Below are positions 32,252 through 37,716 of a stretch of 39,404 nt of DNA, in pieces. Under the pieces are notes generated by a model. That model did no database searches. It saw only the letters and a program-made list of their open reading frames with translations, and had not been told where the DNA came from. The position numbers and the translations under genes were made by a program. Where the stretch lies: sequence record DRR723986_14244; one strand, written 5' to 3'. The stretch's first letter is position 1, and each line of letters opens with the position of its first letter.

Positions 32252-33691
32252 TTAATCTATTTTTTTGTTAAACGTGTAGTTAATACCAAACATCGCCATT
32301 GATGTTGTCATTTCATAAGATACAGAAGTACCTGATATTACACCCAATGGGTTACTTGGTGAAATTTGCATCGGATCTAATAGAGCTCCTTCAGTAGCAT
32401 CACCACTTGTACCATAATGGTAAACTGCGTCTATTCTCCAATTTGAGTTAAGTTCATAACTCAAACCAAACTGATAAGCATTTTTAATAATTGCAGTTGC
32501 TGGTGTCGAAAAGAATGCTAAATCATCATCGATAGGATTTGAGCTATACGTATATCCTATACGCAGTGGTAATTTGTTTATTCCCTTATATTGAAGTCCC
32601 GCTGAAAGAATTGATATATTTTTCCATCCAAACCCTTTAACAGCACCTGTAGGAAAACCATTATCAGCAATTTCCCAACCACTAGCCTTAAATCCTTCAG
32701 TATCTTCATAGAATACACGTCTAAAATCTAAAGCAAAATCAAAGTTATCCATAGAATAACCTAATCCAATTGAAGCAATTGCAGGATAATCCATTTGAAA
32801 ATCTACACCTCGTGCTTCAGATCCATCTAAATAAGTGTTATCAAATTCAAATTCACTAAAAGTCTGTACTGTTTTATATGACGCACCAAGTTTTAATCCA
32901 TTACCTGAATCGTAAAACAGTCCAAATTGTGCACCATACCCAATAGCCGAAGTCTTGTCAGCCTTAGGATAACCTCTGTCTGACCCTCCCATTGAAGAAG
33001 GGAAATCTGGTGATGCTAAGGGATTAGGCTCTAATTCTAAAGCAGCATAATTAATATTTGGTTGTACACCAAATGACAGGTTATCTGTTAACTCATATGC
33101 CCATGAAGCAGCAACCTGCAACAACATATAGTCTGATTCTATTCGACCAAATCCTCTTAGACCTTGCGGCCATGTAATAGGATTAGAATTGTTTGGATTC
33201 CAATTCATGTTTGGGCTACCATTCATATCCATTGGCAAATTGGTTTCTTGTGGGAATGTTACACCAAATCCACTAATACCAAAAGCAGATACACTAAACG
33301 TATGTTTGCTTTCCGCATTTCCCCAAAGCATAGCTAATGCTGGCATAAATGATACTCCTCTATCATCTTTTGTTACACCAAATACTGGTGGAGACGCAGG
33401 CGAACCTGGACCAAAATCACCTTCTTGATATAATAGACCAACAGGTAGACTTGACCTCAATTCTGGTGAGGAAAAGAAAAAGCCAAGATCAAACTTTATA
33501 ATTTTTTCATCAAAAGTTGAAATTGATGCTGGATTCCAATGCATTGCACCAGAAATATCGAGTGGTTGAGCCGTAGATGCACCACCCATAGACATATTAA
33601 TAGATCCAACTCCTTGCATAATATGACCTGTTTGACCATACAACCCAATAGAGAATAATAATAGAATTACTTTCAAAAGATATGTTTTCAT
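32252..33691 (-). CDS. FadL/OmpP1/TodX family outer-membrane channel
   Basis: Signal peptide, hatch motif SMGGASTA...AMHWNPA, amphipathic beta strands, LRIGY, and YTF near the C-terminus. Confidence 0.85.
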   Translation of the reverse strand: MKTYLLKVILLLFSIGLYGQTGHIMQGVGSINMSMGGASTAQPLDISGAMHWNPASISTFDEKIIKFDLGFFFSSPELRSSLPVGLLYQEGDFGPGSPASPPVFGVTKDDRGVSFMPALAMLWGNAESKHTFSVSAFGISGFGVTFPQETNLPMDMNGSPNMNWNPNNSNPITWPQGLRGFGRIESDYMLLQVAASWAYELTDNLSFGVQPNINYAALELEPNPLASPDFPSSMGGSDRGYPKADKTSAIGYGAQFGLFYDSGNGLKLGASYKTVQTFSEFEFDNTYLDGSEARGVDFQMDYPAIASIGLGYSMDNFDFALDFRRVFYEDTEGFKASGWEIADNGFPTGAVKGFGWKNISILSAGLQYKGINKLPLRIGYTYSSNPIDDDLAFFSTPATAIIKNAYQFGLSYELNSNWRIDAVYHYGTSGDATEGALLDPMQISPSNPLGVISGTSVSYEMTTSMAMFGINYTFNKKID

Positions 33692-33781
33692 GATTAGTAG
33701 TTTTATACATTCACCAAAAAATCAGGCGCAACCATATTTAATTTAATGCTTAAAGAATGTTAATTAGTAACTGGCCTTTAA

Positions 33782-33826
33782 CAAAATTACAAGGAGAATA
33801 TCCTAAGATTTATGACAAAAATCATA
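33782..33826 (-). promoter_or_regulatory. fadL-like promoter: -7 TAATTTTG plus Crp/Fnr-like box TATGA-N6-TCATA
   Basis: Box at 33811-33826 lies 21 nt from the -7 element at 33789-33782. Confidence 0.65.
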
Positions 33827-33905
33827 GATTAAATTTTCCAGTTTAGTGAATTTTAAAAATCACCGAATCATTAGTAAATACAATGGTTTCGCTGCTTTGT
33901 TGTTA

Positions 33906-33972
33906 TGTAACAAAAGTTACAATTGTATATGACAAATGTCATGAGTAAACTACAGACATCATAGTAACTTTA
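33906..33972 (+). promoter_or_regulatory. sqr promoter: palindromes TGTAAC-N4-GTTACA and TATGAC-N4-GTCATG plus -7-like TAACTTTA
   Basis: Boxes at 33906-21 and 33928-43 start 22 bp apart. The second box lies 21 nt from the -7 element at 33965-72. Confidence 0.65.
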
Positions 33973-34019
33973 CAATCAGTAAATAAGTGATGTTTAACTA
34001 ACATTACAAAGAACTAAAA

Positions 34020-35267
34020 ATGATGAAAAACTTAGTAATCCTAGGCGCAGGTACAGCAGGTACAGTGATGGCAAATCACTTAGTTAAAAAGTTATCTAAA
34101 AAAGAGTGGAAAATTACTATCGTAGATCAATATAAAACTCATTATTATCAACCTGGTTTTTTGTTTTTACCATTTGATATTTATACCGAAGAACAGGTTA
34201 AAAAAGAGGGTAAGAAATTCATTCCTAATGATGTTGAATATATTCAGAAAAAAATTGAATTAATCGTACCAAATGAAAATAAAGTTACGCTAGAAAACAA
34301 TAAAAATTTAGAGTATGATATACTTATTGTAGCAACAGGTTCTAAAATAGCACCTGAAGAGATTGAAGGTATGTCTGGACCACAATGGCGAAAAAATATT
34401 TTTGATTTTTACACTTATGAAGGTGCAAAAGAATTAAGAGATAAATTGCGTAATTGGGAAGGTGGCAAACTCGTAGTACATATCACTGAAATGCCAATTA
34501 AATGTCCTGTGGCTCCTTTAGAATTTGCATTTCTTGCTGATTCATACTTTAAAGATAAAGGAATGAGAGACAAAGTAGACATTACCTATGTCACACCTTT
34601 AGATGGAGCATTTACTAAACCAAAGGCGACAAAAGCTTTACATCATCTGTTGGAAGAGAAAGGGATTACTGAAGTTACAAACTTTAATATTGAACGCGTA
34701 GATTATGAGAATAATAAGATCATTGACTATGCAGATACCGAAGTAGATTACGACTTATTAGTAACCGTACCTACCAATATGGGAGATGAATTAATAGAAC
34801 GATCTGAAATGGGTGATGATCTCAATTTTACCCCTACTAATAAAGAGACTCTTCAATCGAAAGCCCACGAAAATATATTTGTAATAGGAGATGCAACAAA
34901 CCTCCCTACTTCAAAAGCAGGTTCTGTAGCACACTTTGAAGCAGAAATTCTTGAAGAGAATATTTTAAAGTATATCGATGGTAAAGAGCTAAATGCCAAA
35001 TTTGATGGTCATGCTAATTGCTTCGTTGAAACTGGTAATGGGAAAGCTTTACTAATTGATTTTAACTATCAACACGAACCTGTTGAAGGTACATTTCCCA
35101 TTGCTGGTATTGGACCAATGCAGTTGTTAAAAGAAAACCGAATGAATCACCTTGGTAAGCTTGCATTTAGATGGGTGTATTGGAACATGTTATTAAAAGG
35201 AATTCCAATTCCATTTGTAAGTGCAAACATGTCTACAAAAGGTAAAAAATTAGAACAAACAGCATAA
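34020..35267 (+). CDS. sqr: Sulfide:quinone oxidoreductase-like flavoprotein (type III/SqrC-like)
   Basis: GAGTAG, HYYQPGFL, IKCPVAPLE, IGDAT, SKAGSVAH and FDGHANCFVETG. Both redox Cys are present. Confidence 0.85.
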   Translation: MMKNLVILGAGTAGTVMANHLVKKLSKKEWKITIVDQYKTHYYQPGFLFLPFDIYTEEQVKKEGKKFIPNDVEYIQKKIELIVPNENKVTLENNKNLEYDILIVATGSKIAPEEIEGMSGPQWRKNIFDFYTYEGAKELRDKLRNWEGGKLVVHITEMPIKCPVAPLEFAFLADSYFKDKGMRDKVDITYVTPLDGAFTKPKATKALHHLLEEKGITEVTNFNIERVDYENNKIIDYADTEVDYDLLVTVPTNMGDELIERSEMGDDLNFTPTNKETLQSKAHENIFVIGDATNLPTSKAGSVAHFEAEILEENILKYIDGKELNAKFDGHANCFVETGNGKALLIDFNYQHEPVEGTFPIAGIGPMQLLKENRMNHLGKLAFRWVYWNMLLKGIPIPFVSANMSTKGKKLEQTA

Positions 35268-35292
35268 ATTAAATTAACAAAACATAGAAATC

Positions 35293-35601
35293 ATGAGAAA
35301 ATTAATCGCAAATAGAGAAATTGATGTTAACGAAGAAGGTTATTTAACTGACTTCTCTCAATGGGACAAGGAAATCGGAAAATGCTTAGCCGGTGAATGT
35401 GAAATAGAACTGACAGATAAGCATTGGGAAATTATCGATTATCTCCAAGACAAGCATCATAAAGAAGAAGCTTTATCAATAAGAGGCATAAAGAAAAGTG
35501 GTGTAATTAATATTAAAGAGTTTTACGCACTTTTCCCTGGTGGACCTTTAAAAAATTCGACACTCATTGCAGGAATTCCTAAACCGAAAAGCTGTATCTA
35601 A
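35293..35601 (+). CDS. TusE/DsrC family sulfur-relay protein (single C-terminal Cys)
   Basis: EEGYL...W, LTDKHW, LFPGGP and IAGIPKPKSCI. Confidence 0.9.
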   Translation: MRKLIANREIDVNEEGYLTDFSQWDKEIGKCLAGECEIELTDKHWEIIDYLQDKHHKEEALSIRGIKKSGVINIKEFYALFPGGPLKNSTLIAGIPKPKSCI

Positions 35602-35633
35602 AACTAAACAATCACAAACTTTAAAAACGAGAA

Positions 35634-36110
35634 ATGATGGGCACAAAAGTTAAAAAAATGCTTTTTATACTATCAAAAGCAACAATTGAAAATGCATATG
35701 CAGCGTTTGTAATGGCTAATGGAGCGCGTATGGAAGGAATTGAATCAGAGATATTTTTCACTTTTTTTGGCTTAGAAGCTATTCAAAAGAAAAAACTAGA
35801 ACATTTACACGTAGCAACCGTAGGAAACCCTGCTATGCATATACCTACGATATTAGGCGGTTTACCTGGTGTTGAAGCTTTAGCTACCAAAATGATGAAA
35901 AAAGAGATGGAAAAACTCGATATGCCACCTGTTGGTGAATTTTTAGAAATCCTTTCAGATTCTGGTTGTAAACTATGGGCATGCAAATTAGCAGTAGACA
36001 TGTTTCACCTTAAAGAAGAAGACTTTATTGATGAAATAGACGGAATATTAACTATTGGCGATTTTTATAGCCGTGCAGACCAAGAAGGCACGCAACTTTT
36101 ATTTATTTAA
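35634..36110 (+). CDS. DsrE/DsrF/DrsH-like (DsrE2-type) sulfurtransferase
   Basis: IFFTFFGL, LWACKLAVDMF and a C-terminal LFI. Confidence 0.88.
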   Translation: MMGTKVKKMLFILSKATIENAYAAFVMANGARMEGIESEIFFTFFGLEAIQKKKLEHLHVATVGNPAMHIPTILGGLPGVEALATKMMKKEMEKLDMPPVGEFLEILSDSGCKLWACKLAVDMFHLKEEDFIDEIDGILTIGDFYSRADQEGTQLLFI

Positions 36111-36141: not shown

Positions 36142-36181
36142 AAAGCTTTAAGTATCAATAATAGATATTTAAAGCTTTTTC
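36142..36181 (+). terminator. Probable terminator of the sqr operon
   Basis: AAAGCTTTAAGTATC-N7-GATATTTAAAGCTTT followed by T's. Confidence 0.72.
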
Positions 36182-36284: not shown

Positions 36285-37716
36285 ATGAAAAATTACATTT
36301 ACCTAAGTTTAGCCCTCCTTCTATCTTTAATCTTATTTCAGTAAATGCTCAAGAGTCAGAGCAAGAGAAATATTCAACAAAAACTGAAAAGGAAAAAAAG
36401 AAAGAATCACCAAGTTTTAAGGCCGATGAATATAAAGTTAAAGTTAATTTTAAGAGAGCTATTCCTTATGGTAAAACACTTCTTAAAGAAGGTCGAATAA
36501 TCACCATGAATGGTAAAGAAGTAATTGAAAATGGCGATGTTTTAATAGAGAACAATAGAATTAAAAATATTGGTGTTTTTGGTAGCTTTCCAATACCCGA
36601 CGATGTAAAATTTATTGATATATCTGGTAAAACTATAACACCAGGTTTTGTTGATACACATGCCCATATGTGGCCAAATTGGGGAATTCACAAAAATCAG
36701 GTTTGGATTTACTCAGCTAATTTAGCATATGAAGTTACAACCATAAGAGATCCACAAACTGCTACAACAGACATTCTTACGTACTCTGACATGGTTGAAG
36801 CTCGTATGATTCATGGTCCAAGAGTTTACAGCACAGGACCTGGTGTTGGCTTTTGGGCATACAATAAAAAAAAAGCTTAAAACACGCTAAAGAAATACTT
36901 AAGCAATACAGTGAATATTATAATACAAAGAGTATTAAAAGTTATTTAGTTGGGAATCGTCAACAGCGACAGTGGGTAATAATGGCAGCTAAAGAGCTTA
37001 AATTAATGCCAACAACAGAAGGTGGCCTAGACTTTAAGCAAAATATGGTTAATATGATTGATGGATATCCTGGTCATGAGCACTCTTTTCCTTTATATCC
37101 TATCTACTATGATGTTATAACTACAGCAGCACAATCTCAAATGGCCATAACACCTACTCTTTTAGTTAGTTATGGTGGACCGTGGGCAGAAAATTATTTT
37201 TATTCCATAGAGAATACATATAATGATAAAAAACTTCAATACTTCACACCATATTAAGAGCTAGCTCAATAGTCTAGACGCAGACCAGGATGGTTTAAGG
37301 ATGAAGAACATGTTTTTCAAAAACATGCGGAATTTATGAAAGACCTTATTGAAGCAGATGGTATTGGAGGAATAGGAAGTCATGGGCAGCTTCAAGGTTT
37401 AGGGTTCCATTGGGAATTATGGGCAACGGCTAGTGGTGGTATGACAAATTATGATGCTTTAAGACTAGCAACAATTAAAGGATGTGAAGCATTAGGCCTT
37501 GACGAGGATTTAGGAACTCTAGAAATTGGTAAAATTGCAGACATATTAATTTTGGATGAAAATCCCCTAGAAAATTTACGCAATACAAATACATTAACTC
37601 ATGTAATTAAAAATGGTGTAGTATATGACGTAAATACCCTTGATGAAGTAGTGCCTGCAGAAAAGAAAGTAGAAACATTTCACTGGCAAACTATTAGACC
37701 AACTGGTCTACCATGA
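36285..37716 (+). pseudogene. Disrupted secreted amidohydrolase-family gene
   Basis: Fragments join into one amidohydrolase (PGFVDTHAH, TTEGG, GHEH, TPTL, GSHGQLQG, GKIADILILDENPL). Frameshifts lie near 36326 and in the A9 run at 36866-74. In-frame stops are TAA 37255-57 and TAG 37270-72. Confidence 0.9.

Follow-up and report, generated by a model that had tools for sequence, protein, structure and literature searches.

The closest described counterpart of the gene cluster studied here is the operon MFUM_v2_0219-0221 of Methylacidiphilum fumariolicum SolV, in which the gene of an SQR (sulfide:quinone oxidoreductase) of type III is followed by genes for a TusA homologue and DsrE2. This operon was ∼1.7-fold upregulated in sulfide-adapted cells producing elemental sulfur (S0), and it is tied to the detoxification and respiration of sulfide, in which S0 is the product and the terminal oxidase tolerates sulfide (PMC10205796). 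Type III Sqr genes are described as abundant in Flavobacteriales metagenome-assembled genomes (MAGs) of sandy sediments (PMC8443593), and in Chlorobaculum tepidum the FadL-family protein CT2230 has been proposed, without proof, as a carrier of hydrophobic sulfur chains (bioRxiv 10.1101/172254). Here we analyze positions 32252–36110 of a 39,404-nt stretch of DNA from record DRR723986_14244 (the whole stretch is hereafter called the window), where the gene for a FadL-type outer-membrane channel on the minus strand stands divergently to an operon of SQR, TusE/DsrC-like and DsrE2-like genes (34020–36110, plus strand), each unit ending in a hairpin terminator (Table 1). The design of the cassette itself was already known; what is new is a predicted FNR-type low-oxygen control of both units and a robust link, in several layouts, between FadL and the cassette. 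On balance, we think it probable from these sequence features that the locus encodes a hypoxia-induced, cytoplasmic sulfide-oxidation module that keeps its sulfane sulfur bound to proteins, with FadL as the candidate route of hydrophobic zero-valent sulfur across the outer membrane.

Table 1. Genes and control elements of the FadL-SQR locus (positions in the window).
Feature	Position	Strand	Evidence
FadL/TodX-family outer-membrane channel, 479 aa	32252–33691	-	PF03349, 68.3 bits; fold match to FadL/TodX, E 2e-29; signal peptide; predicted N-terminal hatch with invariant W-N-P-A
Intrinsic terminator of the FadL gene	32209–32180	-	13-bp stem followed by T run; z -4.7; 0/200 shuffles fold as well
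Bacteroidetes-type -7 box TAATTTTG, FadL promoter	33782–33789	-	33 bp from box 1 center; TAAnTTTG at the same offset in 73 aligned FadL loci
FNR/FixK-type box 1 ATGACAAAAATCAT, FadL promoter	33812–33825	.	Palindrome match and conservation
FNR/FixK-type box 2 ATGACAAATGTCAT, SQR operon promoter	33929–33942	.	Palindrome match and conservation
-7 box TAACTTTA, SQR operon	33965–33972	+	33 bp from box 2 center; TAAnTTTA(C) at one fixed offset from the box in 30/30 loci
Type III SQR, Cys form, 415 aa	34020–35267	+	NF049943, 659 bits; C162/C334; GAGTAG FAD motif at residues 9–14; no signal peptide
TusE/DsrC-family sulfur carrier	35293–35601	+	TIGR03342, 80.1 bits; penultimate C101 only; Thr at the second DsrC Cys position
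DsrE2-like sulfur carrier (PF13686)	35634–36110	+	112 bits; invariant C117
Operon terminator hairpin	36142–36178	+	z -3.6; 0/200 shuffles fold as well

The window is AT-rich (∼33% GC), and its nearest relatives belong to Winogradskyella, a marine genus of the Flavobacteriaceae; the FadL protein shares 91% identity with a Winogradskyella MAG protein, and the sequencing runs listed as matching the locus were DNA runs of marine and estuary metagenomes, with no RNA run among them. Like the Methylacidiphilum operon, the cassette consists of a type III SQR gene and two small genes for cysteine-bearing sulfur carriers in a single operon (PMC10205796), so that the alternative to the route from SQR to persulfide dioxygenase (PDO) that the first-pass annotation read from the operon is not a novel design. 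The two nevertheless differ. In the window, the middle gene belongs to the TusE/DsrC family and not to TusA, an FNR-type box is present in the promoter, and a FadL gene is attached; the host, too, is a different one, a heterotrophic flavobacterium from the sea. CT2230 is likened to the window FadL by family and proposed role. Unlike the window gene, however, it sits in a sulfide-repressed sox/dsr regulon of a phototroph, with a putative sulfide-dependent repressor, and adjacency to SQR is not reported in the sections of that preprint concerned with it (bioRxiv 10.1101/172254).

The open reading frame (ORF) coordinates agree with those of the first-pass annotation, and its assignment of the four products to FadL, SQR, TusE/DsrC and DsrE was borne out by profile matches, Foldseek searches and cysteine alignments. 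The SQR exceeded the cut-off of 525 bits of NF049943, the NCBIfam model for type III SQR, by a wide margin (659 bits, residues 3–410), and its best solved relative was human SQOR (E 2.6e-47). Residues C162 and C334 align with the cysteines of the SQOR motifs PVKCAGAP and GYTSCPL and were invariant in 82/82 distinct SQR homologues; the redox positions published for type III SQRs are Cys159/Cys339 and Cys159/Cys331. On profile and conserved residues, the enzyme is thus assigned to the type III sulfide:quinone oxidoreductases. The sequence opens directly on the FAD-binding fold, and no signal peptide was found in the SQR, TusE-like or DsrE-like sequences, for which reason sulfane sulfur would be made in the cytoplasm. 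A selenoprotein, as the words “selenoprotein subtype” in the name of NF049943 might suggest, was ruled out by cysteine at both redox sites and the lack of an in-frame TGA. No TGA stops occurred in the SQR matches of the Flavobacteriaceae or Bacteroidota genome samples described below either, and the selenocysteine-containing relatives of this model must lie in groups other than the Bacteroidota matches seen.

The product of the middle gene surpassed the cut-off of TIGR03342 (80.1 vs. 53.5 bits), and its penultimate cysteine, C101, was invariant in 37/37 aligned homologues. At the position of the second DsrC cysteine, ∼10 residues upstream of the penultimate one, the window protein has a threonine (alignment to 1yx3 and 1sau), and 0/37 homologues have a cysteine there. 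DsrC proper, the substrate of DsrAB, was rejected as an identity on this ground, since it has two C-terminal cysteines, and so was the E. coli-type TusE equivalog NF008562 (57.8 bits vs. a cut-off of 191). The third protein matched PF13686 (112 vs. 25 bits) and scored 101 bits with the DsrE2 equivalog NF047629, under its cut-off of 210; C117 was invariant in 37/37 homologues, and the best solved relatives were 2qs7 and 3pnx. Proteins of the DsrE fold and penultimate-cysteine proteins of the DsrC/TusE fold are likewise encoded together in the DsrEFH-DsrC system of Allochromatium vinosum, for which sulfur transfer from DsrE to DsrC is described (PMC3397948), and in TusBCD-TusE of E. coli. Unlike those systems, the window has a single DsrE2-like gene in place of a heterohexamer set and a carrier that lacks the second DsrC cysteine, with no dsrAB, tusA or mnmA in the annotated flanks. 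The cassette order SQR, DsrC-like, DsrE-like was kept in all 59 loci compared (30/30 from Flavobacteriaceae and 29/29 from Bacteroidota). In the window, the genes are separated by only 25 nt (SQR/TusE-like) and 32 nt (TusE-like/DsrE-like), which, with the terminator hairpin (z -3.6), upholds the earlier description of a compact three-gene operon with its own terminator.

FadL channels carry hydrophobic molecules past the lipopolysaccharide layer. The window protein matched PF03349 over residues 190–433 (68.3 bits vs. a gathering cut-off of 29.7), and its AlphaFold2 model (pLDDT 68, pTM 0.74) had FadL, TodX, TbuX and CymD as its top 24 Foldseek matches (E 2e-29 to 2e-21), all of which predicts a FadL-type beta-barrel fold. 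Compared with E. coli FadL (1t1l), P. putida TodX (3bs0) and R. pickettii TbuX (3bry), it has the same fold (E 2e-29 to 5e-26, TM by target 0.63–0.68), the same Pfam family and, in its predicted N-terminal hatch, an NPA motif, yet it is only 12–18% identical to them, and its extracellular loops are long and variable. The hatch NPA motif appears to be important in the FadL family, going by the title of structure entry 2r4o; W52-N53-P54-A55 was invariant in 16/16 FadL orthologues, in a part of the protein where the model is weak (residues 1–52 at pLDDT <50). The Pro/Met-rich loop peptides singled out by the first-pass annotation do occur in the window protein, within stretches that vary by insertion and deletion.

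The 328-bp spacer between the FadL and SQR genes contains two palindromes of the form ATGAC-N4-RTCAT. This motif occurs nowhere else in the 39-kb window, and 0/100 shuffles contained three or more matches. A Bacteroidetes -7 element follows each palindrome, exactly 33 bp downstream of its center (TAATTTTG on the FadL side and TAACTTTA on the SQR side). This spacing puts the box some 41 bp ahead of the predicted transcript start, the geometry of class II FNR/CRP promoters. The arrangement was conserved across genomes. Among SQR loci drawn from 401 Flavobacteriaceae genomes, 30/30 had a TGAY-N4-RTCA box 58–106 nt before the SQR start codon, and in 73 of 80 loci retrieved with the FadL query an identical box and spacing preceded FadL, whether SQR was present or absent. 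As in class II promoters of E. coli FNR and rhizobial FixK, an inverted repeat related to TTGAT-N4-ATCAA stands ∼41 bp upstream of the predicted start. Unlike in those promoters, the half-site is TGAY, the aligned boxes have no T at the position before it (A predominates there on the SQR side), and the core element is the Bacteroidetes -7 element TAnnTTTG. A symmetric control region common to both units, as proposed in the first pass, is therefore seen, and with one FNR/FixK-type box per unit it predicts co-regulation. The control elements are, by this comparison, FNR-type low-oxygen boxes rather than a sulfur-specific operator, and induction by hypoxia, one of the stimuli the first-pass annotation had suggested, fits them.

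No Crp/Fnr gene was present in the annotated part of the window, and the complete genome of Winogradskyella sp. HB-48 (G001), which holds a version of the locus (L006), stood in for the window's own genome in the regulon search. Sites with an A/T spacer (ATGAY-N4-RTCAT) were nearly all intergenic in this genome and mostly lay 37–76 nt before genes. Among the boxed genes are one for a fixI-like P-type ATPase and, transcribed away from it, a Crp/Fnr gene of 225 aa, as well as hemN (TIGR00538, 430 bits) and genes for cytochromes c, CBS proteins, malate dehydrogenase (mdh) and PPDK. One of two tandem-Usp genes has an A/T-spacer box and the other a box whose spacer contains a C, and further boxes lie 243 nt from the fused ccoN-ccoO gene and 129 nt from hemA. 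As annotated, this set, with ccoNO, fixI, hemN and usp as targets, is what an FNR/FixK/Anr low-oxygen regulon classically contains. The candidate Crp/Fnr regulator differs from FNR and FixK in its N-terminal C-x2-C; with further cysteines, its sequence is compatible with an Fe-S sensor. Induction at low oxygen is thus the prediction for the FadL unit and the SQR unit alike, the boxes being observed and the regulator, its binding and the signal deduced from sequence. We met no description of an FNR regulon in Flavobacteriia in full-text literature searches.

Two further observations concern these control elements. The Winogradskyella genome searched has a second, distant SQR-like gene (L124, G001:C1:2588000-2593700; 26–28% identity; 218 bits to NF049943, under the cut-off), which is preceded by a thioredoxin gene and has another perfect ATGACAAATGTCAT box 67 nt after it. 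In four loci of Yeosuana and Gaetbulibacter type (L034, L035, L062, L074), the genes upstream of FadL encode a Pyridox_ox_2 protein, a histidine kinase with PAS domain and a hybrid response regulator that is fused to a cNMP-binding/Crp helix-turn-helix module; this set may sense oxygen or redox state for the same boxes, either instead of the candidate Crp/Fnr regulator or beside it.

The link between FadL and the cassette was examined in the same 401 Flavobacteriaceae genomes and 80 FadL-query loci, and in a phylum-wide sample of 401 Bacteroidota genomes. A divergent type III SQR cassette adjoined FadL in 27/80 FadL-query loci, 8 of the 80 having too little upstream sequence to judge. By genome, 43 Flavobacteriaceae carried the two together, 21 had SQR alone, 29 had FadL alone and 308 lacked both, giving an odds ratio of 21.7 (Fisher 6e-23, not corrected for phylogeny). 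When the two occurred on the same contig (28 pairs), they were within 6.4 kb of each other in 24 cases and far apart in four. Three layouts were seen among the close pairs: 17 were divergent, three had FadL followed co-directionally by SQR with gaps of only 26–36 nt, and three were convergent, with FadL behind DsrE; one further pair was 6.4 kb apart. An SQR homologue was present in 100/401 genomes of the phylum-wide sample, and a FadL-family gene stood in or beside the cassette in nine of the 19 Bacteroidota loci with wide flanks. Four of these nine were SQR-DsrC-DsrE-FadL operons whose FadL was 51–58% identical to that of the window; in the other five, the FadL-family protein was only 21–36% identical (tblastn), four of them confirmed by Pfam (63–143 bits).

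These distant cassettes also bear on whether a shared regulator alone could hold the genes together. Of 29 Bacteroidota cassettes, nine had an FNR-type box, seven of them among the 10 closest, and where SQR identity was ≤64% the box was present in just 2/19 loci. Since it is mostly absent from distant cassettes that still carry FadL, the FadL link does not depend on a shared regulator. In one variant (L162, L163, L165), the order is a 142–147-aa gene, SQR, a 228–236-aa gene, DsrC-like, DsrE-like and a distant FadL; in L162, the only one of the three scanned, the small genes are of MerR type and DUF1641-containing. In a related locus (L185), the order runs from SQR through a 222-aa gene, DsrC-like and DsrE-like to FadL, and upstream of SQR no small gene was seen. 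Bacteroidota with SQR homologues only 44–49% identical had no DsrC, DsrE or FadL match within 6 kb in 7/7 readable loci (L174, L176, L177, L179–L182; GC 45–56%, genomes of 2.0–3.1 Mb; L175 and L178, which lack a proper SQR match, were left out).

FadL was also linked to sulfur genes of a second kind. In 6/80 loci (L017, L033, L037, L045, L059, L062), it lies beside a cluster for a PhsA-like molybdopterin oxidoreductase, which scored 491 bits where the PhsA cut-off is 694, and for a cytochrome of 630 aa whose 12 CXXCH motifs predict 12 hemes. In Mariniflexile aquimaris (L045), the SQR cassette is placed between this PhsA-like cluster with its cytochrome and FadL. The gene cluster concerned (cluster 16) had been considered as a cbb3 oxidase, an identity that was rejected in favor of the PhsA-like molybdoenzyme. 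The first-pass annotation had left it to neighborhood analysis whether FadL genes of this subfamily also adjoin sulfur genes in other genomes. With 27/80 loci beside an SQR cassette, 6/80 beside a Psr/Phs-like cluster and further layouts in other Bacteroidota, they do, and by these gene neighborhoods the link is partial yet clearly non-random. Its pairing of the FadL gene with the cassette holds in the sense that the linkage recurs; it does not hold as a fixed association, given that each also occurs alone.

Lutibacter-type loci (L024:8496-9719 and 18 others) have a different neighbor. There, an FNR-boxed FadL gene is followed by a gene for a 407-aa membrane protein with 12 helices and no Pfam or NCBIfam match, whose Atlas model resembles subunit I of cytochrome oxidase (TM 0.87 to the COX1 cluster). 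A nos (N2O reductase) cluster, considered for the genes after FadL in Lutibacter, was ruled out; they encode a UvrD-type helicase, a DUF4290 protein, an EPSP-synthase-family protein (PF00275) and GrpE.

The mechanism that we favor would run in four steps. At low oxygen, where sulfide appears and poisons heme-copper oxidases, an activator of the FNR/FixK type would act on the single box ∼41 bp upstream of each divergent promoter, turning on both transcription units along with the regulon of the cbb3 oxidase; boxes and spacing are observed, and regulator and signal are read from them. On the cytoplasmic face of the inner membrane, the type III SQR would then oxidize H2S, pass the electrons to the quinone pool and build up sulfane sulfur on its Cys162/Cys334 pair, as family membership and the conserved cysteines suggest. 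Cys117 of the DsrE2-like protein and Cys101 of the single-cysteine TusE-like protein would accept this sulfur as protein persulfides, replacing the low-molecular-weight thiol acceptors of type II SQRs, a role suggested by the invariant synteny. In the last step, FadL may pass S8 or polysulfanes across the outer membrane. Here the recurrent gene linkage is what argues for the step and, because zero-valent sulfur is hydrophobic, makes FadL the best candidate for such a route. The channel would be passive. With SQR, sulfur would most simply leave the cell, as a cytoplasmic SQR makes export the simpler reading; beside Psr/Phs-like reductases, it may enter.

Several findings weigh against this account. 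FadL occurs without type III SQR in 29/72 FadL-positive Flavobacteriaceae genomes, and SQR without FadL in 21/64 SQR-positive ones. The Lutibacter-type FadL clade (28 tree rows) is never SQR-linked, and 18 of its rows pair FadL with the COX1-like membrane protein. The cassette has come or gone beside a resident FadL gene, sister genomes differing solely in whether they carry it, as in Algibacter (L076 vs. L026 and L027) and Mariniflexile (L045 vs. L033). A tree of 88 FadL sequences, built quickly by maximum likelihood, needs at least eight changes of the SQR-linked state, which implies repeated gain and loss of the linkage. The Met/Pro-rich loops are deleted or replaced in close FadL orthologues regardless of SQR linkage, so that of the earlier emphasis on these loops their presence stands and their conservation does not. 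SQR loci that lack FadL often have other regulon genes upstream, namely a tandem-Usp-like gene in 6/30 (L085–L087, L090, L101, L104; called by eye from the sequence and from the PF00582 match of a similar G001 protein) or PPDK in 3/30 (L091, L093, L097), so that adjacency could partly reflect clustering of the regulon. Finally, the strict box is hardly enriched in G001 (37 sites vs. 30 for a reversed control); regulon membership is deduced from the A/T-spacer intergenic subset and conservation across genomes, not from enrichment.

On a rival reading, FadL would be merely a fellow of the low-oxygen regulon, adjoining SQR through regulon clustering and doing a job unrelated to sulfur. It might, for example, take up fatty acids or other hydrophobic nutrients once lipid or cofactor chemistry that depends on O2 fails, or serve the COX1-like membrane protein of Lutibacter. 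We regard this as a real possibility, though a doubtful one. It draws strength from the FNR-type box that precedes FadL irrespective of SQR, from the FadL-only genomes, from the partnership with a COX1-like protein in the Lutibacter-type clade, from a cassette inserted or lost beside a resident FadL gene, and from the Usp-like and PPDK genes, members of the regulon by Pfam matches of similar G001 proteins, as alternative neighbors of SQR. Mere clustering within a regulon fits less well, however, with a linkage found in at least four layouts, including one-operon forms with short intergenic gaps, or with distant cassettes that mostly lack the FNR-type box and still carry highly diverged FadL-family genes. 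In three of these (L162, L163, L165), moreover, the gene before SQR is the small one that is of MerR type in L162. The second sulfur link, to Psr/Phs-like clusters, also argues for a job in sulfur metabolism.

The first-pass annotation had read the locus as an uptake and relay system, with FadL importing external zero-valent sulfur or organic polysulfides for delivery to DsrE and TusE, and SQR adding to the pool or running backward as a quinol:sulfur reductase at low O2. Its sulfur linkage and co-regulation are retained, the latter as a prediction, and its direction is what became unlikely. Uptake is the function of the FadL channels characterized so far, by the titles of their solved structures, the regulon is anaerobic or microaerobic, and the periplasmic-type Psr/Phs-like reductase beside FadL in 6/80 loci would need imported sulfur. 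In the window, however, neither SQR nor either carrier has a signal peptide, which places the making of sulfane sulfur inside the cell, and the unit includes no importer of sulfur through the inner membrane. The regulon moreover includes a cbb3 oxidase, a sink for SQR-derived electrons, and sulfur reduction with menaquinol is thermodynamically unattractive. The type III SQRs studied so far, as covered in the relevant part of PMC10205796 and its references, oxidize sulfide. Export of the sulfur product through FadL is at least as likely as uptake. That the carriers instead feed biosynthesis (tRNA thiolation, molybdenum cofactor or Fe-S assembly), as TusE does in the sulfur relay of E. coli, with SQR only supplying the sulfur, agrees with the TIGR03342 family match but is very improbable given the low score with the TusE equivalog, the lack of tusA, tusBCD and mnmA in the annotated flanks, the invariable tie of the carriers to SQR and the low-oxygen promoter.

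Flank annotation covered 21 ORFs between 23.7 kb and the end of the window, and the flanking genes in this interval are housekeeping genes. The first-pass claim that dsrAB, tusBCD, PDO and rhodanese genes are missing from the window holds for these 21 ORFs, the part of it covered, where none was found. At 36506–37716, three successive short ORFs (124, 91, and 126 aa) resemble fragments of a single gene for an amidohydrolase. PF01979 is matched at its C-terminal end by the last ORF, and the first and last also match a relative's locus (L001); a pseudogene or a series of frameshift errors is likely.

For sulfur oxidizers and reducers alike, it has long been an open question how elemental sulfur, insoluble and hydrophobic as it is, gets across the outer membrane of Gram-negative bacteria. 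The speculative one for CT2230 was the only proposal of a FadL route for sulfur met in full-text searches, which covered the papers without their supplementary files. In the loci compared here, FadL is tied to a sulfide oxidase in several independent layouts, and in marine heterotrophs that are cultivable and genetically approachable; this multi-layout link offers a testable handle on the passage of elemental sulfur through the outer membrane. More tentatively, this FadL subfamily, along with unrelated FadL paralogues that were each recruited separately, may be a dedicated outer-membrane conduit for zero-valent sulfur (S8 or polysulfanes) that was repeatedly captured by type III SQR cassettes and Psr/Phs-like reductases, and common heterotrophic Flavobacteriaceae of the sea might then run a hypoxia-triggered respiration from sulfide to extracellular sulfur in which a relay of protein persulfides replaces the SQR-PDO route. 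The predicted FNR-type control suggests that abundant, supposedly “aerobic” Flavobacteriaceae of particles and sandy sediments start to oxidize sulfide specifically at times of low oxygen, which would bear on sulfide removal in deoxygenating coastal waters.

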